The position numbers and the translations under genes were made by a program. Below, in pieces: positions 18,634 through 29,737 of a stretch of DNA of 64,000 nt; positions within the stretch are counted from its first letter, which is position 1; every line of letters starts with the position of its first letter. The DNA comes from an uncultured Pseudomonadota bacterium (GTDB lineage Bacteria > Oederibacteriota > Muellerivitia > Muellerivitales > Muellerivitaceae): contig CAWIIP010000004.1 of the NCBI GenBank assembly GCA_963836235.1, positions 832,001-896,000 of the forward strand, given 5' to 3'. Below the pieces are notes generated by a model that saw only the letters and a list, made by a program, of their open reading frames with translations, searched no databases and was not told the origin of the DNA.

Positions 18634-21600
18634 TTGAACCAGTTAACCACCGTTCCACCGATTGGAATTTTTGAATTGACCTTAAATCGATATAAAAAGA
18701 TATTTCCACGGCATTTCATAAAACAGGTTTATCTTTTTTTCATTTTGTTTATGTTTTCGGTTGTCCCTTCCGTTTTCGCTTCCACTTATATCCCCTCACA
18801 GGCTTGGAGCCGGGACATCGATGCCGGGGGTTATACGGATGGTGCCCCGGTTGGTGGTTTTGGCGCCGGAAGCTATACTTGGAATTTCGCGGGGGATTTT
18901 TACCTGAGCCGCCTCAACATCGCCACCGCTCCCACCACCTGGACCAACAACAATCCCTATACGGTTGACGGCAATTGCGGTTTTTATATGTACCAAAAAC
19001 CCCTGGGCCAAGCCGCCGTTACCTACCGCCTGGATGCCGCCGCGTTGGGTACGGGTCAGGCCAACTATTACTCCCTCTTCCCGAAAGCCTGGGTGGATTA
19101 TTACGGTTCGGATTTTGCCTGTAAGGCCCGGGTGACGCAATTTACGCCTCTCATCCCCGGGGATTACACCCGAAGCAGTTATCCCGAGGGCATCTATGAG
19201 TGGGATCTTTCCAATCCCACTTGCACCACGACGGATGTGGCCATCATGCTGACCTGGGACAATAGTTTTGGGGGCACCACCGCGGCGGTCACCACCTCCG
19301 GGAGTGACACGGGACTGGTTTTAACCCGGACCAGCGGGAGCGCCACCAGCAAGTCCCAGGGTGAGTTCACCCTGGCTTGTTCCTCCGGCTCCGGGGTGAC
19401 GGTCACCTACCAATCCGCCACGGGCGTCGCCGCCCTTCAAACTTCTTTTGGGGCAGCCGGGACCTTGAATAATACCGTGGGGAACAACACCATCGGCGGT
19501 ATCGCTTTTAAAGTGACCCTCGCCCCCGGAAAATCGGTGAAAATTCCCATCGTGTTGGCTTGGGACATTCCCCTGGCCCAACCGGGGACCGGCGCCCAAT
19601 GGTACCGGGAGTACACCCGAACCTACGGAAAGACGGGGCTCAACTCTTTTTCCATCGCCAATGAGGCTTTGTCCAATTACGCCACATGGGAATCGTCCAT
19701 CGATAGTTGGCAAGTGGGAATACTCGGAGGGCCATACCCGGATTGGTTCAAACAAATGCTTTTCAACGAGCTTTATTATTACGTCATTGGTGGAACGCTT
19801 TGGGAGGCGGGGCAGTATGGCTCCACCCAATTTGACGCCGGGCCCGACATGTTCAGCAGCCTTGAATCCTATGTTTATACCTTTTACGGAACCTCGGACG
19901 TGCGTTTTTATAGTTCCTGGGCACTGGCTGAAAATTGGCCCAATATCGACAAACAGGAAGTCGAACAGTTTTGTGACAGCGTGACGATTAATAGCTCTCA
20001 AACTCTTCCCAGGCCGGTGGCTATTGGCACCTGCGCGCATGATTTCGGGAGTTTGAACGATGTCTTCACCGCGTGGAACGACTACACCTACCGGGATTCC
20101 ACCACTTGGAAAGACTTGAATTCCAAATTGGTTCTCATGGTTTACCGGGATTGGCAATTGACGGGACAAAGCGATAGCACCTTCCTCAATTATTGTTGGC
20201 CCGCCATTCAAGTAGCCATGGCCAAAGTGCACAGCCAATGCGTCTCGGGTGGCGTCACCTATAACCTGCCCATCTCGAACGGCATCGACCAAACCTACGA
20301 CAACCTGGGCCTTACCGGGGAGACCTCCTATTGCGGAAGCCTTTACCTGGCCGCCTGCGAGGCCGCCCAAGCCATCGCCACGACCGAGGGGAACGGCGTC
20401 TTGGCCACGACCTATCAATCCTGGTTGACCCTGGGGCAGTCCGACTTCGAGGGAAATCTTTGGAATACGACAGGGAATTATTACAACATTGATACCGGAA
20501 GCGGGGCGGGCGGTGTCACGGGCGTGGCCCGCATCATGAGCGACCAGCTTTGCGGACAATGGTACGCCAAGGCCTGCGGCCTGGCGGACGTGGTTCCTGC
20601 GACCCACGCGGTAAGCGCCTGGCAGGCGGTTCACGACAACAACTGGGCCAAGTTCGACGCGGGGGCCCATGGGGAAGTGAACGTGATGACCTCGGCCGGC
20701 AATATCGACACCAGCACTTCCCAAACTCAGGAAGCCTGGGTGGGAACAACTTGGGGCGCGGTGGCGGGAATGATCCAAGAGGGAATGTTCACCCAGGCGG
20801 TCTCCATCGGCAACAGCCTCTATAACAGCGTTTGGAACTTGGGGCAGATGTGGTATCGAACGCCGGAGGCTTGGACCACGGGCCTTACCAATATCCGCGC
20901 GCCTTATTACATGAGGGCCAACGCCATTTGGGGCGCCAAGCACGCTTATGACGTCACCTCTCCCTGCGGAAGCGCCAGTTGTACGCCCATCCCCACCTTT
21001 ACGCCCGTCCCGACGGCGACCTTAAATTGTCCCACGACCGCCACCCCTACACCCACCGCCACCGGCACAGCTACCTTAACTCCGTCTAAAACAGCCAGCC
21101 CCAGCCCCAGTTCGACGATCACTTTTTCCCCCACTTCCAGCGTGACCAAAACACTCACTTCCACCCCCACTTCAAGTCTCACCGGCACCCCAACTTGGAC
21201 TTCCACCCTCACCAGCACGAAAACCGCGAGCGCCAGCCCAACGCAAACCATCTCCCAGACCGCCAGTTCCTCGGCTACCTCTAGCGCCACCTATACCGCC
21301 ACCAACTCCCGGACATCCACTCCCATCTCCAGCTCGACCGCCTCCTGGACCTCCACACCCACATTCTCCTCCACGGCCACACCCACCAGCACGACCACCC
21401 AAACCCTCACCCGCACTCCAACCGCCACTATGACTTCAACCACTAGTTATACCGTTAGTCCTACCTTTTCGATGACGGCTTCCTTGACGCCCAGTGAAAC
21501 CGTAACCTCGACCGCCACAAGCTCCCGGACATCCACCCCTTCCTTAACACCCACTCCGTCCACAACGGCCACCCCAACCGGCACTGTCACCAGCACGCTC

Positions 21601-22455
21601 ACCATTACCTCGACTGCTACGGAAACCCCGACCACTAGCTCCAGTTCCACCGCGATGTCCTCGCAAACCCCCAGCGCCACCGCCACGACGTCCCTAACGC
21701 CCTCCACCACATTCACCCCCACTTTGACCGTCACCGAAACCTCGACCCCTTCATTAACCACTACACCCTCGGCCACTTCATCAAGCAGTCAAACTTCCAG
21801 TCCTACTTTGTCCTTCACCGTTACCTCCACGGTTTCCTCTTCCGCCACCAGCACCGCCAGCCCGACCGTCACCCTCACGCCCACTGGAACTAAAACTCCA
21901 ACTCCCACCTTGACCGCCACATCCAGTGCGACCTCCACGGCCAGCGCCACTCCCACCATGACTTGGACCAAAACATCCACCCCTAGCCAAACTCCGAGCA
22001 CCACCCTTACTTTCACAGTGACCACGACTTCCACCGCTTCAAGCTCCTTCACCCCCTCCTCAACCCCCTCCACCACCACAACCGCGACCTCCTCGGTCAG
22101 CGCCACCATGACACCCACTCCAATATTCACCGTCACCTTTACCCCCACCGCCTCCGCTTATTCCTCCCCAGTGACACTCCTGCCGCCCTATCCCAATCCC
22201 GATAAGGGAGGCGAACCAGTGACCATTGCCATTGAGGTGCCAGGTCCGGTGGTTGTGACTTGGAAAGTCTTCACCACGGCATTTCGAATGATCGATGGGG
22301 GAACATCTAGTTTTTCCGGAAACGGGACTATCCAATGGGATATGAAAGACAAGTTGGGAATCGAAGCGGCCGGCGGCCTTTACTACATTCGGGTTGAAGT
22401 CCAAACCAGCGGCGGGACTACACGGAAAATCTTTAAAATACTGGTAATTCGATAA
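18634..22455 (+). CDS. Secreted glycoside hydrolase family 116 (beta-glucosidase/glucosylceramidase-like), Thr/Ser stalk and C-terminal sorting-type domain
   Basis: GAPVGGFGAG, LFNELYY, LESYVYTFYGTSDVRFY, HDFG, WKDLN, DQTYD, DQLCGQWY, RTPEAW, YMR; end PYPNP...FTTAFR...GLYYIR...KILVIR; exact start uncertain. Confidence 0.88.
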   Translation: MNQLTTVPPIGIFELTLNRYKKIFPRHFIKQVYLFFILFMFSVVPSVFASTYIPSQAWSRDIDAGGYTDGAPVGGFGAGSYTWNFAGDFYLSRLNIATAPTTWTNNNPYTVDGNCGFYMYQKPLGQAAVTYRLDAAALGTGQANYYSLFPKAWVDYYGSDFACKARVTQFTPLIPGDYTRSSYPEGIYEWDLSNPTCTTTDVAIMLTWDNSFGGTTAAVTTSGSDTGLVLTRTSGSATSKSQGEFTLACSSGSGVTVTYQSATGVAALQTSFGAAGTLNNTVGNNTIGGIAFKVTLAPGKSVKIPIVLAWDIPLAQPGTGAQWYREYTRTYGKTGLNSFSIANEALSNYATWESSIDSWQVGILGGPYPDWFKQMLFNELYYYVIGGTLWEAGQYGSTQFDAGPDMFSSLESYVYTFYGTSDVRFYSSWALAENWPNIDKQEVEQFCDSVTINSSQTLPRPVAIGTCAHDFGSLNDVFTAWNDYTYRDSTTWKDLNSKLVLMVYRDWQLTGQSDSTFLNYCWPAIQVAMAKVHSQCVSGGVTYNLPISNGIDQTYDNLGLTGETSYCGSLYLAACEAAQAIATTEGNGVLATTYQSWLTLGQSDFEGNLWNTTGNYYNIDTGSGAGGVTGVARIMSDQLCGQWYAKACGLADVVPATHAVSAWQAVHDNNWAKFDAGAHGEVNVMTSAGNIDTSTSQTQEAWVGTTWGAVAGMIQEGMFTQAVSIGNSLYNSVWNLGQMWYRTPEAWTTGLTNIRAPYYMRANAIWGAKHAYDVTSPCGSASCTPIPTFTPVPTATLNCPTTATPTPTATGTATLTPSKTASPSPSSTITFSPTSSVTKTLTSTPTSSLTGTPTWTSTLTSTKTASASPTQTISQTASSSATSSATYTATNSRTSTPISSSTASWTSTPTFSSTATPTSTTTQTLTRTPTATMTSTTSYTVSPTFSMTASLTPSETVTSTATSSRTSTPSLTPTPSTTATPTGTVTSTLTITSTATETPTTSSSSTAMSSQTPSATATTSLTPSTTFTPTLTVTETSTPSLTTTPSATSSSSQTSSPTLSFTVTSTVSSSATSTASPTVTLTPTGTKTPTPTLTATSSATSTASATPTMTWTKTSTPSQTPSTTLTFTVTTTSTASSSFTPSSTPSTTTTATSSVSATMTPTPIFTVTFTPTASAYSSPVTLLPPYPNPDKGGEPVTIAIEVPGPVVVTWKVFTTAFRMIDGGTSSFSGNGTIQWDMKDKLGIEAAGGLYYIRVEVQTSGGTTRKIFKILVIR

Positions 22456-22526: not shown

Positions 22527-22556
22527 TTGTCCACGACGGGGACCCTTCGTGGACAG
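22527..22556 (+). repeat. 30-bp quasi-palindromic site, copy 1
   Basis: TTGTCCACGAC GGGGACCC TTCGTGGACAG. Confidence 0.95.
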
Positions 22557-22595
22557 GTAAAAGACCCATGAATACCTATTTCGGGAGTGAATTTA

Positions 22596-23024
22596 ATGGG
22601 AAATGATATTAAGGTTTGCTCAACCGACAATACCCAATGCGTAATTATAAAATTGTTGGAAATCGCAAAAGAGAATTATCCAAGTTTGAAAATATCAGTT
22701 GAGATTAAATTGACGGAGTTCAGCGGAAGTTCAACGGCTTGGATTAGCCAAGATGTTCTTAAAAGTTTCGCTAACTCATTAGATGAACTTAGTCGAAAAA
22801 GAACCGGGCAAGTATATTTAGAATCGATGAGTCCCAAGCATCTGCAACTTGCCATTTCTCCGTTAGATTCTGTCGGACATTTTCTCCTAGAAATTACGGT
22901 ATCAAAACATGTTCCTATCGACCGAAAAATGGTGGATCACCAGGTGTCAGGCGGCTTCGAACTTGACCCTGGAAATCTCCCTGAACTAGTTCGTGAGTTT
23001 AAAAATTTAGTATCAAAGTGTTAA
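22596..23024 (+). CDS. Hypothetical protein, resembles WapI-type immunity proteins (cassette 1)
   Basis: GGGAG RBS before ATG 22596; pattern FSGSSTAW...LKSFANSLDEL...GQVYLES...LDSVGH; family call from memory of the pattern only. Confidence 0.55.
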   Translation: MGNDIKVCSTDNTQCVIIKLLEIAKENYPSLKISVEIKLTEFSGSSTAWISQDVLKSFANSLDELSRKRTGQVYLESMSPKHLQLAISPLDSVGHFLLEITVSKHVPIDRKMVDHQVSGGFELDPGNLPELVREFKNLVSKC

Positions 23025-23029
23025 ATTCA

Positions 23030-23059
23030 TTGTCCACGATGGGGACCCGCCTTGGACAA
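23030..23059 (+). repeat. 30-bp quasi-palindromic site, copy 2
   Basis: TTGTCCACGAT GGGGACCC GCCTTGGACAA, 5 nt after stop 23024. Confidence 0.95.
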
Positions 23060-23145
23060 TAAAATGGATAATGTTGGCCTACCCCGCTTTTCTTTTATAA
23101 GCCGGGTAGATAAAAAAAGTTAATAGAATTCAATCGAGGCTGAAA

Positions 23146-24465
23146 ATGGAATCTCCCCAGACAAACACGCGTCCGAAAGCACTCCTGTTTTCGGTCAGAA
23201 CGCCCAGGGTAACTGATACCGAAGCGATGGAATCGATGATCGAACTCGAACGGCTGGTGACGACCTTGGGTTACGAGGTGACCGGAACTATGTCCCAGCG
23301 GCAACCCAGCACAAAAGGGGTCACTGTGGTGGGTGAGGGAAAACTGATGGAACTCGCCCAACTCACCGGCGGAAAGGGCTACCGGGATAGAGTTAAGGGG
23401 CAGTCCGAAGCGCCAAAACAGGAACAAGTCCCGGCCTCGACTCCCGAGGGACCCGCGATGGTGGTCGTTTTTGACTGTGATTTGAGCCCGTCCCAGATTC
23501 GAAATGTCGAAGAGGCTTTGGGGGTTCCGGTGCTCGATCGAACCGGGGTGATTATCGAAATCTTCAACCGGCACGCGAAGACCCGGGCGGCGCGACTCCA
23601 GGTCGATATCGCGCGCCAAACCTATCAGGCTCCCCGTCTCAGGGATACGGGGGTTGGAAAGGAACGCCAGTCTGGCCGGGGATCCGGGGAAACCATCATC
23701 GAGACGGAAAAGCGCAAAGTCCGCGACCGCCTGGCTGAGCTGAGGCACGAGTTAGAAGCGGTTCAAAGAGAAGAGGAACATCGCCGGATGAAACGCGCGG
23801 AACTGCTCGGCGCCGCGCTCGTGGGCTACACGAATGCCGGAAAATCATCCCTCATGCGGGCGCTGACCGGCAGCGACGTCCTGGTGGAGGACAAGCTCTT
23901 CGCGACCCTGGATACGACGATACGCGCCCTACAACCAGAGACCCAGCCGAGAATTCTGATCACCGATACGGTGGGTTTTATCCACAAGCTTCCACACGAT
24001 CTGGTAGCGTCCTTCCGTTCCACGCTGGATGAGGCCCGCGGCGCCGCCCTGCTTCTTTACGTGGTGGATGCCGCTGATCGAAACTTTCGTTCCCAGCTCG
24101 AGGTGGTTCGGGAAGTCTTGGGTGAGATTGGCGCCGACAAAACGCCATATCTTCTCATTCTCAATAAGGCCGACTGCTTGAGCGAATGGCAGAAGCAGGT
24201 TCTCGGGTCGGAGTATCCGGACGCGGTTTTAACCTCGACCCGAAGTCCCGAGGACATGCGAATCGTCAGTGAACGCCTCATTCATTTTTTCGAGAAAGAC
24301 ATGATTGAGAAGGAAATTCTCGTTCCCTATAAAGCTCAAGGTGTCATCCGAGAAATGCGTTTGAATATGAAAATCTTGAGGGAGAGCTTTACCGAAGAAG
24401 GCGTTCTACTGCTGGTTCGCTCTCGTCCGATTGACCTTCAGCGCCTGAGTAAAGTGATGAAGTAG
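23146..24465 (+). CDS. hflX: Ribosome-splitting GTPase HflX (cassette 2)
   Basis: GEGKLMEL, DLSPSQIRN, DRTGVIIEIF, G1 GYTNAGKS, LFATLD, DTVG, NKAD. Confidence 0.93.
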   Translation: MESPQTNTRPKALLFSVRTPRVTDTEAMESMIELERLVTTLGYEVTGTMSQRQPSTKGVTVVGEGKLMELAQLTGGKGYRDRVKGQSEAPKQEQVPASTPEGPAMVVVFDCDLSPSQIRNVEEALGVPVLDRTGVIIEIFNRHAKTRAARLQVDIARQTYQAPRLRDTGVGKERQSGRGSGETIIETEKRKVRDRLAELRHELEAVQREEEHRRMKRAELLGAALVGYTNAGKSSLMRALTGSDVLVEDKLFATLDTTIRALQPETQPRILITDTVGFIHKLPHDLVASFRSTLDEARGAALLLYVVDAADRNFRSQLEVVREVLGEIGADKTPYLLILNKADCLSEWQKQVLGSEYPDAVLTSTRSPEDMRIVSERLIHFFEKDMIEKEILVPYKAQGVIREMRLNMKILRESFTEEGVLLLVRSRPIDLQRLSKVMK

Positions 24466-24659
24466 TGCCTGCGGTGTGTGCCGCCCTTCGATTTTAGATA
24501 TAGAGGGCGGTACTACACCTGCATCGAGGCTTCAAGCCGAGATGCAAGCTTTGGTTGTACCTGTCGAAATAATAATGCGGTAGGTACCCCGTACGATTCA
24601 CATGTGAATCGTGAACCAGGGGTGTCCCAGACGGGCTCGCAAGCTTGGTTGATAAGAAA

Positions 24660-24689
24660 TCGTCCACGACGGGGACCCGTCGTGGACAA
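24660..24689 (+). repeat. 30-bp quasi-palindromic site, copy 3
   Basis: TCGTCCACGAC GGGGACCC GTCGTGGACAA. Confidence 0.95.
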
Positions 24690-24744
24690 ACAAAATAACT
24701 TGAATTATGTCTGCAATTGAAATATTTCGGGAGTGGATTTTAGG

Positions 24745-24754
24745 TTGTCCACGA
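24745..24754 (+). repeat. Isolated left half-site of the 30-bp element
   Basis: TTGTCCACGA, exact match to the left arm, 55 nt after copy 3. Confidence 0.65.
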
Positions 24755-24765
24755 AAGAGGCCTTT

Positions 24766-25656
24766 ATGAAAACCATAGTCCTTTTCCTGATGGAGGCCGT
24801 ACTTCTTTTACCCACCTTTTTATGTGCCCAAACTCAAACTCCATCGCTGAGTGAAGATTGGACGCCAAAAGTCGAATTGGTATGGCCCACTCCCCGACCA
24901 AGCCTCGGGGATCACGATGACCATGTTTATCCCGCCGAGATCAATAAGATTAAACGCGTAAAACTCCCTTTTGATCTATTCACGTTTTTTGAAAATTTGG
25001 ATCTTGCCTTAGAACGTGATAGTGACGAGTCTGACATTGATGAAAAAGACGTTAAGAAATGGAAGGAGGATTACCAGAAGCTTCAAGAACTGGGTTGGTC
25101 GAAGGGAGAAGGCCTTGACATGATCCGGGAAAAATGGGTTCGCAAAAGGGGTTCCTTCGGCTTTGTATGGTTTGGAAGAAGCATTTACTTTATCGATCTT
25201 ATGAAACCGACAGAAGCCATTGTGCTGTTGTCGGGAACCTACGGAAGGGACGCAAGGCCGGCCAAGGAAAGGGGCAAATTCGCGAATGAGGTGGATGGAA
25301 TTGAAATTGAAAAAATAGGTGATGATACCTATCGGATTTTTGCGCAGGGGCTCGGCGGGGACATGAAGTTCGGTTTTTCTCCCAGCACTGAAGTTTGGGA
25401 TTACAAATTAAACAGCGATTTTATTACTTATTATGATTTTAGCCACTCCTTCGGGAAAGACCTGGAAAAGAACGGCCACCGGGATATCGTGGTCTATGGC
25501 GAAGGATATCGTCAGCTCGGACCCGGAAATGTGCATTATGAGCTGCAGGGTCTCGGCGTGTTTTCTTGGAACGGGAAAAAATGGATAAATATAAGCGACA
25601 AGGAAAAAGAATTTTTGGCCGAATTGTCAAAGATTTTCCCGGCCTACAGCCTCTGA
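24766..25656 (+). CDS. Secreted hypothetical protein (cassette 3)
   Basis: GAGG RBS, ATG 24766, signal peptide MKTIVLFLMEAVLLLPTFLCA; C-terminal DLEKNGHRDIVV...VFSWNGKKW (FG-GAP-like). Confidence 0.7.
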   Translation: MKTIVLFLMEAVLLLPTFLCAQTQTPSLSEDWTPKVELVWPTPRPSLGDHDDHVYPAEINKIKRVKLPFDLFTFFENLDLALERDSDESDIDEKDVKKWKEDYQKLQELGWSKGEGLDMIREKWVRKRGSFGFVWFGRSIYFIDLMKPTEAIVLLSGTYGRDARPAKERGKFANEVDGIEIEKIGDDTYRIFAQGLGGDMKFGFSPSTEVWDYKLNSDFITYYDFSHSFGKDLEKNGHRDIVVYGEGYRQLGPGNVHYELQGLGVFSWNGKKWINISDKEKEFLAELSKIFPAYSL

Positions 25657-25662
25657 ATGCAC

Positions 25663-25692
25663 TTGTCCACGACGGGGACCCGGATTGGACAG
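25663..25692 (+). repeat. 30-bp quasi-palindromic site, copy 4
   Basis: TTGTCCACGAC GGGGACCC GGATTGGACAG, 6 nt after stop 25656. Confidence 0.95.
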
Positions 25693-25718
25693 GAGTACAA
25701 CGTTATGTGGAGGGCAAG

Positions 25719-27569
25719 ATGGAGAACTGGCGTCCTTGGTTATATCCCGACCTTAGTTTCGGGAGTTATTTTCGGAAATATCCATACGTATTCCTATTTA
25801 GCTTTATCTGCGCTTTTTGCTTTATTTTCAATATCGACACCCCCTGGTTCTTCCTCAATCCCAGCACCCGTCTCTCGAACGTAGGGCACTTCACTCCTTG
25901 GATCTACTGCTGTATGTTCGGGTTGCCTCTCTACTCATTCATTCACCTACTACTCAACAGCCCCAGGTTGAAGAACTTCAAGTTCCACGTAACTATCTAC
26001 ACCTTAGGGTTGGCCGTCCTGTTGGGGATGTTCTTTAGCTTGAGCGAGGGTGATCGGCTTTGGTCCGATTTTTTCCATCCTTTCTTATGGGTTTCCTTGA
26101 CCGCCTTTTTGTGGCCTCTCGTGGGCTGGGGCCTTTCAAAGGACGAAACCCACAGCTATTTTTGGAACTTCCTGGCGGGTCTGCTCAAGGCCTTTTTGGC
26201 CTTTTTCCTTTGTGTCGGAATGTTCCTATGGCTTAACAGGTTCTTCGGCGGTTTTTTGAACGGTAATTATTTAATCCCCGCCTGGGCCCGGAATTTTTTC
26301 AATGCCAATAATATCATCGGTCTGGCTTTGCAGGTCGTGACCCCCTTGGTCTTTCCCTGGTACATCCTTGGGAGCTTGGAAAAAACTTTGGGCACGGCCG
26401 GGGAAACGCAACCTGAGGGGATCCCTTTTGGGCGAAGGACAACCCTCGGGGTCTTAGGCCTGTTGGCGGTCGGGTTCCCCCTTGAATTTTGGAAAGTCAT
26501 CCAACAATTGCGTTCTCACCAATCCATCTATTTCTTCGATGAAAAAATGCTCTTGTTCCTATTCGCCTTGCTTTCCATCGGACTCTTGCAGGCGGGGAAA
26601 GTGAACTGGCCGGAAAAGTGGCTGGGGATCTATCCCAAGGTGGTATCCGGCCTTTCCCTTTTGTTGGTTCTCATTTCCGGATTCACTCTTCCGTTTAATT
26701 TGGGAAGGAATGATATAGCTGGGGTTTATTATTCGCTGATCTACATAGTTTGGTTCGGCTTGGTTTTTATTTATTTTTTCTTCCGTCCCCAGATGGGCTG
26801 GGTAAGGCCGCTCTTAACCCTGTGGGTGTTATTGCTCCTCACCCTGTGGGGCCCCTTGAGCCCGGCTAGTCTAGCCTTGAGGGATAATGAAAAAGGATTG
26901 AAAAATTACATGGTCCAGGCCGGCCTATTGAAAGACGGCCTACTGGTAAAGGCCCCGCCGCCGCAGGATCCGAAACACCCCCTGAACCAGGTCGTTTGGC
27001 GGCTTCAGGACTTATTTCGATGGGATGGATTGGACTGGCTGAAAGGTTCCTTTCCCCTTGAATTGCGGAAACTGGATTGGGACAAGGAAAAGGGCCTCGC
27101 CAACCTGCCCAAACTGATGGATTGGCTGGGCCTGCCCCTGATGAACGGCCAAACCAACGTAAACGAATACCAATCGTACTCCGTTCAATACAACCGGCGG
27201 GATCGGACGAAGCATTTTGGGCCTTACCAGCTTGTGGATTTCAACGCCTATCAAGGAGGCGGAGCGCCCAGTAATGCCCCTGAATTTTATCTCTCCCTGC
27301 CTAAGCCGAGCGAAAGCCTGGAGCTTTACGACAATGGAAAGTTGGCGGGCGTGATCCCATTGAAGAAGGTCTATGCCCATCTGGAAAAGTATGAGCGGGT
27401 CCATACCCAACGGAGCTTGGTTCTCCCCAAGGACATGGAATTAGAGTATGAAAATAAAAAAATACAGGTGGAGATCAATATCACTTATCTTCAGTTAAGG
27501 GTCCTCGAAGGGAAAGGTGTCATTCAATATTGTTCGGGGGAAATGCTGGTCAGGCGAAAAGGTCGATAG
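25719..27569 (+). CDS. Polytopic membrane protein, DUF4153-like (cassette 4)
   Basis: GGAGG RBS and ATG 25719 downstream of the repeat; many TM segments then LTLWGPLS...GLLKDG and a soluble C-terminal domain. Confidence 0.65.
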   Translation: MENWRPWLYPDLSFGSYFRKYPYVFLFSFICAFCFIFNIDTPWFFLNPSTRLSNVGHFTPWIYCCMFGLPLYSFIHLLLNSPRLKNFKFHVTIYTLGLAVLLGMFFSLSEGDRLWSDFFHPFLWVSLTAFLWPLVGWGLSKDETHSYFWNFLAGLLKAFLAFFLCVGMFLWLNRFFGGFLNGNYLIPAWARNFFNANNIIGLALQVVTPLVFPWYILGSLEKTLGTAGETQPEGIPFGRRTTLGVLGLLAVGFPLEFWKVIQQLRSHQSIYFFDEKMLLFLFALLSIGLLQAGKVNWPEKWLGIYPKVVSGLSLLLVLISGFTLPFNLGRNDIAGVYYSLIYIVWFGLVFIYFFFRPQMGWVRPLLTLWVLLLLTLWGPLSPASLALRDNEKGLKNYMVQAGLLKDGLLVKAPPPQDPKHPLNQVVWRLQDLFRWDGLDWLKGSFPLELRKLDWDKEKGLANLPKLMDWLGLPLMNGQTNVNEYQSYSVQYNRRDRTKHFGPYQLVDFNAYQGGGAPSNAPEFYLSLPKPSESLELYDNGKLAGVIPLKKVYAHLEKYERVHTQRSLVLPKDMELEYENKKIQVEINITYLQLRVLEGKGVIQYCSGEMLVRRKGR

Positions 27570-27610
27570 TCTTGGGCTGGCCGAAAATCCGCTTAGTGAG
27601 GAGTGGTGGC

Positions 27611-27640
27611 CTGTCCACGACGGGGACCCGTCGTGGACAA
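27611..27640 (+). repeat. 30-bp quasi-palindromic site, copy 5
   Basis: CTGTCCACGAC GGGGACCC GTCGTGGACAA. Confidence 0.95.
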
Positions 27641-27668
27641 CGAAACGGTACCTAAAAGACCTAACAAG

Positions 27669-28175
27669 GTGAATGATTTGGAAGCCAAACAGCATGATGA
27701 ATCCAAACAAGTGAAAGTTTTGTTCAGGACACCTGCCGAGAAGGACGAAGCTTTTGTGGAAACCCTCTGGGCTATTCCACAAGGTGGCGACCTCTACAAG
27801 TTAGATAACAACCCCATCTATCCTTATGGTGTTTCTTCCGGAGATATTGTCGAAGCGCCTTTCGATCCAGATGAACAGTTTCGAAAGTTTACAAAAGTCG
27901 TAATAAAATCTGGAAACAAAACGGTAAGAATTATTTTTGATAAAAAAGTTGAGGAATCAAAAGAGGATCAAGCAATTTTGGATAAGTTGGTTCAAATGGG
28001 TTGTGACTATGAGGGTTTGAACCAGATACATTTTTCTATAAATGTTCCCTCTTCAGCTAATTTTAAAGAAGTTTGCGAATTCCTAACGGCTTTAAAAATT
28101 CAATGGGAACATGCCGATCCGAGTTACGACGAACTTTATGGTGGAAAGAATAAAAAGTGGTGGTGGCCGTTTTGA
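27669..28175 (+). CDS. DUF4265 domain protein (cassette 5)
   Basis: ETLWA...YKLDNNPIYPYGVSSGDIV...SGNKTVRI...GCDYEG...SINVP; start placed at GTG 27669 after the repeat. Confidence 0.8.
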   Translation: MNDLEAKQHDESKQVKVLFRTPAEKDEAFVETLWAIPQGGDLYKLDNNPIYPYGVSSGDIVEAPFDPDEQFRKFTKVVIKSGNKTVRIIFDKKVEESKEDQAILDKLVQMGCDYEGLNQIHFSINVPSSANFKEVCEFLTALKIQWEHADPSYDELYGGKNKKWWWPF

Positions 28176-28177
28176 GG

Positions 28178-28207
28178 TTGTCCACAACGGGGACCCGGCG
28201 TGGACAG
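28178..28207 (+). repeat. 30-bp quasi-palindromic site, copy 6
   Basis: TTGTCCACAAC GGGGACCC GGCGTGGACAG, 2 nt after stop 28175. Confidence 0.95.
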
Positions 28208-28235
28208 CGGACAGAGTGAATCAGAAAGGGATTTT

Positions 28236-28319
28236 ATGAAACACAAACTGATGTTATTAGCTTTTTGTTTTATTATGTCACCAATATTTAGCGCTGATTC
28301 AACAAGTGGACAAAATTAA
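28236..28319 (+). pseudogene. Truncated cassette remnant: signal peptide only
   Basis: AAAGGGA RBS, MKHKLMLLAFCFIMSPIFSADSTSGQN*; contains right-arm sequence GTGGACAA at 28306-28313 just before the stop. Confidence 0.5.
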
Positions 28320-28678: not shown

Positions 28679-29737
28679 ATGCAGGTTACCATTTATGAAG
28701 TCGCCGAAAAGGCGGAAGTTTCCATCTCCACTGTTTCCCGTGTCATTAACAACAAGCCCAATATCCCCGAATACACCAAGCGCAGGGTCTTAAACGCCAT
28801 TGAAACCCTCAACTTCAAGCCCAATCTTATCGCGCGGGGCATGGCCTCCAAGAAGGTCAACCTGGTCGAGGTTTTTTTTTCCTGGCACAAGCAGAGCCCC
28901 TGGTTCACGGACCTCCTCCATGGAATCAATAAGGAGTTGCGGGAACAGGAATACGGCCTTCTCGTCAACACACTCGATGGGGCGGCTATTTTCAACCCCA
29001 AAGAAGTCCATCGAAGGCTCTTCCACAATGCCGTGGACGGAGTCCTGATGATCGCTCCTTATTTGGAGGAGAAGGATCTTCTTCTTTTGGCGGAAAGCGG
29101 CGTGCCGATAACCCTCATCGGGTACCGGTCGCAAAATAAAGCCATCAGTTTCGTTGACAGCGACAATATCAACGCGGCTTCAGCGGTGGTAAGCCATTTA
29201 TTCAAGTTAGGACACACTCATATTTCCTGCATTACCGGTCCTACGGAAACTTCGCCCAACGCCGCCGACCGTCTCGAGGGATATCGGCAGGCCATGGTCC
29301 GGCATCAATTGAAAATTCCGGGCAGTTACGTAATAGGGGGGGATTTTGTCCGGCAGACGGGTAAGGAAGCGATGCAGAAGCTTTTGGCCCTGCCCATGAG
29401 ACCGACAGCTGTTTTTGCCTGCAACGATGAAATGGCCTTAGGGGCTTGGCACGCCCTCCAAGAAGCGGGGTTGACCGTTGGAAAAGATATGGCCCTGGTG
29501 GGTTTTGACGACATGTTCGAGGCCAGTAAGGCGCCTTATTCCCTAACCACGGTGCGACAGGATTGGATGAACATGGGAGTGAAAGGGGTCCGGATTTTGA
29601 TGGATAAGATTCGGCAAAAGGGGCATGGGGAATCGCAACAGGTTCTCGTCCCCGGGAAGTTGGTTGTGCGCGGTTCCTGCGGATTTCCGGTCCAAAGCCC
29701 CAAAAGGAAAGTCGCCCAGCCGCTCCTGAAACCTTGA
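28679..29737 (+). CDS. LacI family transcriptional regulator
   Basis: TIYEVAEKAEVSISTVSRVIN HTH; PTAVFACNDEMALG, VGFDD, LTTVRQ. Confidence 0.95.
   Translation: MQVTIYEVAEKAEVSISTVSRVINNKPNIPEYTKRRVLNAIETLNFKPNLIARGMASKKVNLVEVFFSWHKQSPWFTDLLHGINKELREQEYGLLVNTLDGAAIFNPKEVHRRLFHNAVDGVLMIAPYLEEKDLLLLAESGVPITLIGYRSQNKAISFVDSDNINAASAVVSHLFKLGHTHISCITGPTETSPNAADRLEGYRQAMVRHQLKIPGSYVIGGDFVRQTGKEAMQKLLALPMRPTAVFACNDEMALGAWHALQEAGLTVGKDMALVGFDDMFEASKAPYSLTTVRQDWMNMGVKGVRILMDKIRQKGHGESQQVLVPGKLVVRGSCGFPVQSPKRKVAQPLLKP

Follow-up and report, generated by a model that had tools for sequence, protein, structure and literature searches.

A gene-cassette system on conserved 30-bp sites in uncultured FCPU426 bacteria, most likely run by a short serine recombinase

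Integrons are the textbook means by which single genes are stored up and reordered in bacteria, and to our knowledge all known integrons rely on one tyrosine recombinase family and on folded attC sites. Integrons, with their IntI integrase, attI site and arrays of attC cassettes, and the attC clusters that have no integron-integrase (CALINs) are described in the available part of Cury et al. 2016 (PMC4889954), according to which CALINs are thought to be served in trans. The attC sites are, in the available part of PMC7923331, imperfect palindromes with R'', L'', L' and R' boxes that are conserved in structure and not in sequence. The pdif/dif modules of Acinetobacter plasmids are presented in the available part of Mindlin et al. 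2019 (PMC6449649). In this study, we analyzed a stretch of 64,000 nucleotides, called the window hereafter (contig C4:832001-896000 of G000, a 3.97-Mb genome of an uncultured bacterium in five contigs), which carries an array of five gene cassettes delimited by six copies of a 30-bp site. We interpret the array as part of a cassette system on 30-bp core sites, most likely run by a short serine recombinase, and we assign this reading a probability of roughly 0.6.

When up to seven mismatches to the 30-mer were allowed, 70 sites were counted in G000, 63 of which fell into 12 arrays of 2-14 sites, with the other seven being single. Within the arrays, 62/63 sites lay on the strand of their array, and the exception was a degenerate copy beside an IS66 insertion. 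The spacing between sites and open reading frames (ORFs) was analyzed for sites with at most five mismatches and ORFs of at least 60 aa. A co-oriented ORF ended 1-194 nt upstream (median 18) in 56/60 sites, and no stop codon of such an ORF overlapped a site. A few cassettes carried reversed genes, and their sites still pointed in the array direction.

Each site is a 30-bp dyad with outer arms TGTCCAC and GTGGACA and the centre GGGGACCC, all of which are conserved. The arms and centre are symmetric apart from a central GA, and since this GA breaks the symmetry, the site has a direction. Among the G000 sites, positions 2-8, 12-19, and 24-29 were near-invariant, and the inner arms (positions 9-11 and 20-23) varied. 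Conservation was limited to the 30 bp, with only a weak A-run beyond them on the 3' side. A folded form was evaluated as a 14-pair stem over 56 sites: 87.6% of the cells were paired versus 88.3% in shuffles, with 489/500 shuffles equal to or above the observed value, and three inner stem pairs were unpaired in 16-23 of the 56 sites. No compensatory change (covariation) supporting a hairpin was found in these 56 sites. The hairpin is not under selection, which fits a duplex-DNA site bound by a protein dimer.

These properties set the site apart from attC, which was rejected as an identity: the site is 30 bp long and conserved in sequence, lacks the R and L boxes and any R-box consensus, shows no covariation, and gives no sign of a folded single-strand substrate. 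An integron was rejected on the integrase as well, because the IntI model TIGR02249 gave at best 40.9 bits genome-wide and 77.9 bits with the Xer-like protein of the genome (at most 78 bits in all) against a cut-off of 265. The window array lacks an integrase as a CALIN does, yet its sites are not attC, and a CALIN in the strict sense was rejected too.

Roles other than recombination were also considered. The intrinsic terminator was rejected: 0/6 window sites were flagged on the + strand, 1/6 was flagged on the opposite strand, and there was no T-tract on the coding strand. Like repetitive extragenic palindromic (REP) sequences and bacterial interspersed mosaic elements, the sites are short conserved palindromic repeats just past genes. 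Unlike them, the sites are clustered and co-oriented, keep the same sequence over many genera, and bound mobile genes. Genes resembling REP-associated tyrosine transposases (RAYTs) do not co-occur with the sites, being present in 15/24 family genomes and absent from the site-rich genomes G018, G001, G023, and G013, and REP/RAYT elements were rejected for these reasons. A broader explanation is that the 30-bp element has some other per-gene role (protein-binding, RNA-processing, or REP-like) and that exchange occurs by homologous recombination between the repeats with no dedicated recombinase. We consider this improbable. The site orientation does track gene direction and GC skew, and many site-bearing genomes have no candidate recombinase. 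But the missing terminator signature, compensatory changes, and RAYT-type genes tell against the individual roles, the site direction stays constant even around reversed genes, and a recombination site accounts better for three further features: each inserted unit brings a single site, the element has a conserved link to a recombinase gene whose terminal site has a special arm (described below), and the 30-bp sequence has been kept over at least 15 genera.

To describe the distribution, 41 genomes were searched for the exact pattern, which was present in 19: G000, 18/24 other members of its family, and 0/16 genomes from other families of the phylum. A reversed-pattern control gave no match in any genome searched. 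With one mismatch allowed, 28/31 family genomes were positive with 606 matches, ranging from 86 in G018 to 0 in G017, G007, and G019. The genome records of the family are labelled candidate division FCPU426, and at least 15 genera share the site sequence. When a single genome per species was scanned, at least 173 loci were returned; among the matches listed, most were labelled candidate division FCPU426 or uninformatively, and a small number were single hits in other labelled taxa. By our own estimate, about four hits would be expected by chance in that collection for 19 fixed bases. No match was found in viral contigs.

In the window, the site pattern of the initial annotation gave 10 matches over both strands, corresponding to six places (22529, 23032, 24662, 25665, 27613, and 28180). 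All six sites read best on the + strand, and four match on the - strand too because the 30-bp site is nearly palindromic. The features of the array and its flanks are as follows.

18634..22455, + strand: GH116 glycoside hydrolase, 1273 aa, a resident chromosomal gene upstream of the array (Pfam PF04685, PF12215)
22527..22556, + strand: site 1, TTGTCCACGACGGGGACCCTTCGTGGACAG, which opens the array (pattern match)
22587..23024, + strand: cassette 1 gene, a WapI-like immunity protein of 145 aa (Pfam PF24716, E 2.5e-9)
23030..23059, + strand: site 2 (pattern match)
23146..24465, + strand: cassette 2 gene, HflX GTPase, 439 aa (TIGR03156, 340.8 bits versus a cut-off of 216.75)
24660..24689, + strand: site 3, with the rare left-arm variant TCGTCCAC (pattern match)
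24733..25656, + strand: cassette 3 gene, a 307-aa ORF with a likely ATG start at 24766 and a hydrophobic N-terminus
25663..25692, + strand: site 4 (pattern match)
25719..27569, + strand: cassette 4 gene, 616 aa, no family
27611..27640, + strand: site 5 (pattern match)
27669..28175, + strand: cassette 5 gene, DUF4265, about 168 aa from a GTG at 27669 (Pfam PF14085, E 2e-26)
28178..28207, + strand: site 6, which closes the array (pattern match)
28679..29737, + strand: LacI-family regulator, a resident gene downstream of the array (Pfam PF00356, PF13377)

The initial annotation had reported six co-oriented sites starting at 22527, 23030, 24660, 25663, 27611, and 28178 and no further full copy in the window; the pattern search returned exactly this, with 0 matches in 100 shuffles. 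Its intervals were the same when recomputed (503, 1630, 1003, 1948, and 567 bp from site to site), and the array spans 5.7 kb. Three sites had been placed 2-6 nt after a stop codon, and the gaps measured were 5, 6, and 2 nt for the ORFs ending at 23024, 25656, and 28175; the other three sites follow at 71, 194, and 41 nt. The genes had been called unrelated and different in base composition, which agrees with their assignments (WapI-like, HflX, two without a family, and DUF4265) and with GC contents of 38.1%, 54.6%, 44.7%, 49.7%, and 39.5% for cassettes 1 to 5, the flanking GH116 and lacI genes having 56.5% and 53.1%. Neither the cassette 3 protein nor the 616-aa cassette 4 protein had a match in Pfam, NCBIfam, PHROGs, or PADLOC. 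The upstream neighbor GH116 was matched in 18/30 other family genomes at 52-82% identity, and no site was found within 1.5 kb downstream of it in the loci of 11 relatives, one of which (L189) has a degenerate site upstream. No recombinase gene was found in or beside the array within the window; the array would therefore be a secondary one, served in trans.

Three smaller observations concern the same array. The 10-mer TTTCGGGAGT occurs at 22580, 24726, and 25758, which is 52-94 nt past three sites and ahead of cassette genes, and has only 14 copies in the G000 genome. The 10-mer probably serves as a shared ribosome-binding leader. The window hflX cassette holds about 140 additional bases between the stop codon and the site (24478-24620), which are not in nine other copies and of which one further locus has just the first part, and this stretch could be a small insertion. 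Past site 6, a 26-codon ORF with a signal-peptide-like start lies at 28237-28316, followed by about 360 bp free of ORFs up to lacI, and this region may be the remnant of a truncated cassette.

Comparison of cassettes within G000 and with its relatives revealed that they move as units. An NHL-repeat cassette of 1276 bp is 100% identical at C2:1195351-1196625 and C4:57528-58802 of G000, and the identity stops exactly at the outer edges of both sites. A BrnT/BrnA cassette has a further copy in contig C5 of G000 at 90.9% identity and another in G001 at 82.5%, and G001 also holds counterparts of a GNAT cassette (75%) and of the cassette spanning C4:139998-140653 (87.8%). These three matches in G001 span from site to site, and the BrnT/BrnA copy in C5 ends at a partial site on one side. 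The final 28 codons of cassette 1, together with a left half-site, have a 100% identical copy in another array of G000 (C1:403352-403435).

The hflX cassette provides the widest comparison. The window copy is the only hflX in G000. The gene is present in 12/31 family genomes at 83-95% identity across genera, although its neighbor GH116 shows only the lower identities given above, and G021 has two hflX cassettes with identities of 92-94%. In the ten hflX loci aligned, the upstream flanks were unrelated, and the loci were homologous only between two points, one within the right half of the site upstream of the cassette and the other within the left half of the site downstream of it. The variant TCGTCCAC of site 3 also follows the hflX cassette at locus L210 in another genus. 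Judging from these alignments, hflX is an accessory, horizontally moving cassette. The breakpoints lie in the longest identical stretch, as homologous exchange between repeats would give too.

The initial annotation had inferred a cassette system separate from integrons, and this is upheld by the lack of IntI and of attC features and by a content that varies between relatives with breakpoints inside the sites. It had also suggested looking for clustering of the motif between single genes and beside a recombinase gene. The scan of the genome and its relatives found 63/70 sites in 12 arrays and a candidate recombinase gene at the ends of some arrays. What it had named as speaking to the contrary, a motif scattered in both orientations among housekeeping genes or a gene content fixed among relatives, was not observed, the sites being clustered and 62/63 co-oriented and the gene content differing with breakpoints in the sites. 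We are highly confident in the narrower claim of a site-specific cassette system distinct from integrons.

Several junctions locate the exchange more closely. Site variants at positions 12 and 13 go with the upstream cassette, and a T at position 17 accompanies a changed right arm. In one contig of another metagenome, agreement with the window breaks off after site position 16. The linked variants and the contig break therefore place the exchange point around positions 14-16, which include the central GA. After atpG, a stretch of 5160 bp that is 100% identical in G000 and G001 reaches as far as site position 20, past which the two sequences are unrelated. The identical atp operon segment lies at C1:382841-388000 in G000 and at C9:121089-126248 in G001, two genomes of one genus. 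Contigs from 12 sequencing runs, with no RNA run among those listed, cover the hflX cassette or single sites and diverge from the window at sites. The joints listed for these contigs were rejected as evidence of excision, as their sides were at most 30 letters long and the joints are site-to-site ambiguities.

The initial annotation had placed the enzyme elsewhere, and a serine-class candidate was indeed found at the ends of other arrays.

G000 C2:163827-164663, outside the window: short serine recombinase, 278 aa, with PF00239 and PF07508 only (Pfam)

PF07508 takes the place where a small resolvase or invertase would have its C-terminal helix-turn-helix domain, and the catalytic serine belongs to a YVRVSS motif. 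A 515-aa paralogue in G000 shares 49% identity with the protein, which ends where the zinc ribbon of the paralogue starts. In a large protein collection, the short clade comprised 19 clusters of 74-100% identity, all of 275-283 aa and none with PF13408; its next relatives reached at most 61% identity, and many of them carry PF13408. The pairwise ratio of nonsynonymous to synonymous substitution rates was 0.09-0.10, indicating that the short recombinase is under purifying selection and is not a decaying fragment. An AlphaFold2 model with a mean predicted local distance difference test score of 77.5 matched the Bxb1, PhiC31, and LI integrases with E-values down to 4.6e-13, and the modelled recombinase domain superposes on 4kis over 129 columns at 2.4 A.

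The gene is tied to the arrays by position. Intact copies are present in G000, G001, G022, G042, and G045, and fragments in G018, G046, G042 (two), and G022, with a 26-codon remnant at C1:399281-399358 of G000. Ten loci with the 3' end of the gene or a fragment were compared (two in G000, three in G042, and one each in G001, G018, G022, G045, and G046, from five genera), leaving out fragments at contig ends in G022. In 10/10 loci, a convergent site or half-site closing an array lay about 6-40 bp past the gene end; for G046 this covers just the presence of a site, 38 bp past the end of the match, and in G001 only a half-site was present, beside a group II intron. The terminal sites have a canonical centre and distal arm, and their gene-proximal arm is degenerate (AAAAGGAACAC, AAAGTGAACAG, CTAGGGGACGA, or GTAGTAGACAA). 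The cassettes are transcribed towards the recombinase gene. By comparison, 0/6 full-length serine recombinase relatives had a site within 1.5 kb. Genomes with the intact short gene had a median of 56 sites (n = 5) versus 7.5 in those without it (n = 26; one-sided Mann-Whitney p = 0.0014, a value that is overstated because the compared genomes are kin).

A site variant with the centre GGGGAGG and the right arm GTAGTGGACA was seen at C1:236009 in G000 and also as a single copy in G001, G016, and G022. In G022, it is the platform site adjoining the short recombinase gene. This variant was considered as a dif site and rejected, since several genomes have no site bearing these arms.

A number of points weigh against a system run by the short recombinase. 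The gene is intact in only 5/31 family genomes, and no match with E <= 1e-10 was found in the site-rich genomes G005 (40 sites), G023 (40), G021 (37), and G010 (24), of which G005 and G010 are 98% and 99% complete. G018, which has the most sites (86), has only a fragment of the gene. All genomes are metagenome bins. The identity of the atp segment could be due to recent transfer or to cross-talk in binning or assembly, the flank beside the large C2 array being 78% identical. The exchange point, drawn from a handful of linked variants, would also fit the 8-bp overlap of a tyrosine recombinase, and likewise RecA-dependent crossing-over in the most conserved stretch. Neither an excised circle nor an empty site from the same population was seen in the read data, which consist of contigs holding small shares of the stretch.

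Part of this evidence bears on whether the same cassette system is served by another recombinase, either a tyrosine enzyme using GGGGACCC as an 8-bp overlap (the Xer-like protein or a tRNA-linked integrase) or an unrecognized enzyme, with the short serine gene being a conserved neighbor in one ancestral array. The 11+8+11 layout fits simple tyrosine-recombinase sites too, and such an enzyme would explain the arrays in genomes where the serine gene is missing. However, in DNA-level comparisons of the linked loci, only the recombinase gene itself was conserved and the other flank was not, and neighborhood by descent leaves unexplained why the gene and the site alone have been kept.

The Xer-like protein was the leading candidate at first. 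It is encoded by the single Xer-like gene of G000 (C1:328834-329895), it is the only recombinase present in nearly every family genome (23/24), and its close orthologues, at 56-77% identity, are confined to the family and its order. But the gene is also present in G017 and G007, both without sites, and it has its own palindrome. This element, perfect over 28 bp (10+8+10), lies at C1:329898-329925 (L214:5898-5925), 3-30 bp upstream of where the gene is annotated to begin, and its arms are unrelated to those of the cassette site. It was found with at most two mismatches in nine other family genomes and stood beside the orthologue at all eight loci compared. The palindrome is probably the dif site of the family in a single-recombinase Xer system, or an operator, and the Xer-like recombinase was rejected on account of it.

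Six paralogous tRNA-linked integrases were also examined, and an integrase of this kind is located 5.4 kb away from the large C2 array and 11 kb from the only array of G003. They were rejected because they are not beside arrays and because such integrases also occur in genomes outside the bacterial family in which no site was detected. In five site-rich genomes, no tyrosine recombinase was found within 5 kb of a site. Taking both sides together, we regard service by another recombinase as unlikely, though less so than a repeat without any dedicated enzyme.

The short serine recombinase thus remains the preferred candidate, and a mechanism can be proposed for it. In serine recombinases, strand exchange takes place at a central dinucleotide, whose asymmetry sets the polarity of the reaction. 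A cassette unit consists of one gene, sometimes two, plus one site. A dimer of the enzyme would bind each 30-bp dyad, two sites would pair, and both would be cut at the central GA with a 2-nt stagger before the halves are exchanged. Recombination between direct sites would release a circle with one site, and in the reverse reaction such a circle would be inserted at any site. The short gene, together with its terminal site and degenerate gene-proximal arm, would form a platform comparable to intI and attI.

The shortened protein would suit this scheme. In large serine integrases, it is the zinc-ribbon/coiled-coil module that recognizes the outer portion of the longer att sites and governs direction. 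Loss of the module may have shortened the site to the footprint of the recombinase domain and may have removed the direction control, as a system of identical sites needs. The candidate resembles large serine recombinases (Bxb1, PhiC31, and LI integrases; PDB 9iu2, 9rah, and 4kis; and, by NCBIfam, the Ccr proteins of the staphylococcal cassette chromosome mec) in having catalytic and recombinase domains by Pfam, sequence, and fold, and the sites share dyad symmetry and an asymmetric central dinucleotide with those of large serine recombinases. Unlike them, it is only about 278 aa long, stopping at the start of the zinc ribbon without a coiled coil; its 30-bp sites are all alike, with no distinct attP and attB partners; and it would act on dozens of sites per genome and not move one element.

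The system parallels integrons in several ways. Both have co-oriented arrays of mostly promoterless single-gene cassettes with one site at each 3' end, moving as units, and in both the cargo is rich in toxin-antitoxin pairs, acetyltransferases, and ORFans. As for the layout of integrons and CALINs, an analogous arrangement of a candidate recombinase gene and a special terminal site is present at some arrays, and many have none. The candidate enzyme, in contrast, is a serine and not a tyrosine recombinase, and the cassettes are transcribed towards its gene, whereas integron cassettes run away from theirs. The initial annotation had likened the array to CALINs or pdif modules. The first comparison holds insofar as the window array would be a secondary, CALIN-like one. 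The second holds in outline, with genes between short simple recombination sites in varied contexts and mostly no dedicated recombinase alongside, but it fails in detail: pdif sites are oppositely oriented 28-bp sites with XerC and XerD arms that resemble the host dif, the sites here are 30-bp direct repeats (62/63) in long chromosomal arrays, and they differ from the dif-like palindrome that accompanies the Xer-like gene of the genome.

According to Pfam, the cargo of the arrays includes HigB/HigA, two BrnT/BrnA pairs, MazF, two PIN proteins, TacA with a GNAT toxin, and GNAT, as well as two HAD hydrolases, LOG, a peroxiredoxin, an outer-membrane barrel, a P-type ATPase, and SUFU-like and immunity-like proteins. 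Many array ORFs had no Pfam family. PHROGs returned nothing for 29/31 family-less ORFs of arrays and flanks, and the remaining two encode ParB-like proteins and lie at an array end.

Sites also receive insertions. Like integrons, the arrays have insertion sequences and group II introns lodged in their sites, and insertion sequences are present inside the arrays. One group II intron, present in two copies in G000 (C2:1476565-1478510 and C1:223049 onward), is inserted between site positions 20 and 21, and a second type (Rfam RF02003) interrupts a site of G045 (L199) between positions 12 and 13 and is also found at the platform site of G001 (L219). All of them are oriented as the cassettes. Group IIC-attC introns target the attC sites of integrons (available part of PMC7923331), and the insertion seen here parallels them in behavior only.

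Two further groups of genes were noticed near arrays. ParB_N-like proteins of 550-880 aa, with a weak ParB_N match and a shared C-terminal domain, gave nine matches in G000 (for example, C1:368632-370986, C2:1205629-1207404, and C5:39555-41432). They occur in 11/24 family genomes and 0/16 outside, often a few kb from array ends. They were rejected as the enzyme, being absent from site-rich G001 and G022, and are cargo or neighbors. The only cas1 of G000 (C1:429412-432857, L176) lies directly past the last site of an array, beside an HEC-01 defence pair. The stretch scanned for a CRISPR array, which began about 5 kb to one side of this lone cas1 and ended just past it, contained none.

In a literature search, we found no paper with the site string or with a cassette platform based on a serine recombinase, about 1.7 million PubMed Central articles and the subscription journals lying outside that search. 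The literature on 'FCPU426', judged from its listing, includes none on mobile elements. Provided that the enzyme is correctly assigned, or at least that the mechanism is site-specific, the system is categorically new. We give even odds to the boldest formulation, an independent invention of the integron principle in which a serine recombinase without zinc ribbon and coiled coil shuffles single-gene cassettes at identical 30-bp duplex sites, with one platform and many secondary arrays per genome and with hflX-type cassettes crossing genera.

A second system of this kind, if true, would mean that cassette platforms arose more than once; it would follow the same logic with a duplex site of 30 bp and, probably, a serine recombinase. 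Should the enzyme act as proposed, its length of 278 aa, its 30-bp site, and its lack of direction control would make it a candidate for a compact tool. HflX-type ribosome-associated GTPases confer antibiotic tolerance elsewhere. For the organisms themselves, uncultured soil and peat bacteria, the system would bring to light the flow of genes within a candidate phylum for which metagenomes are the only source.

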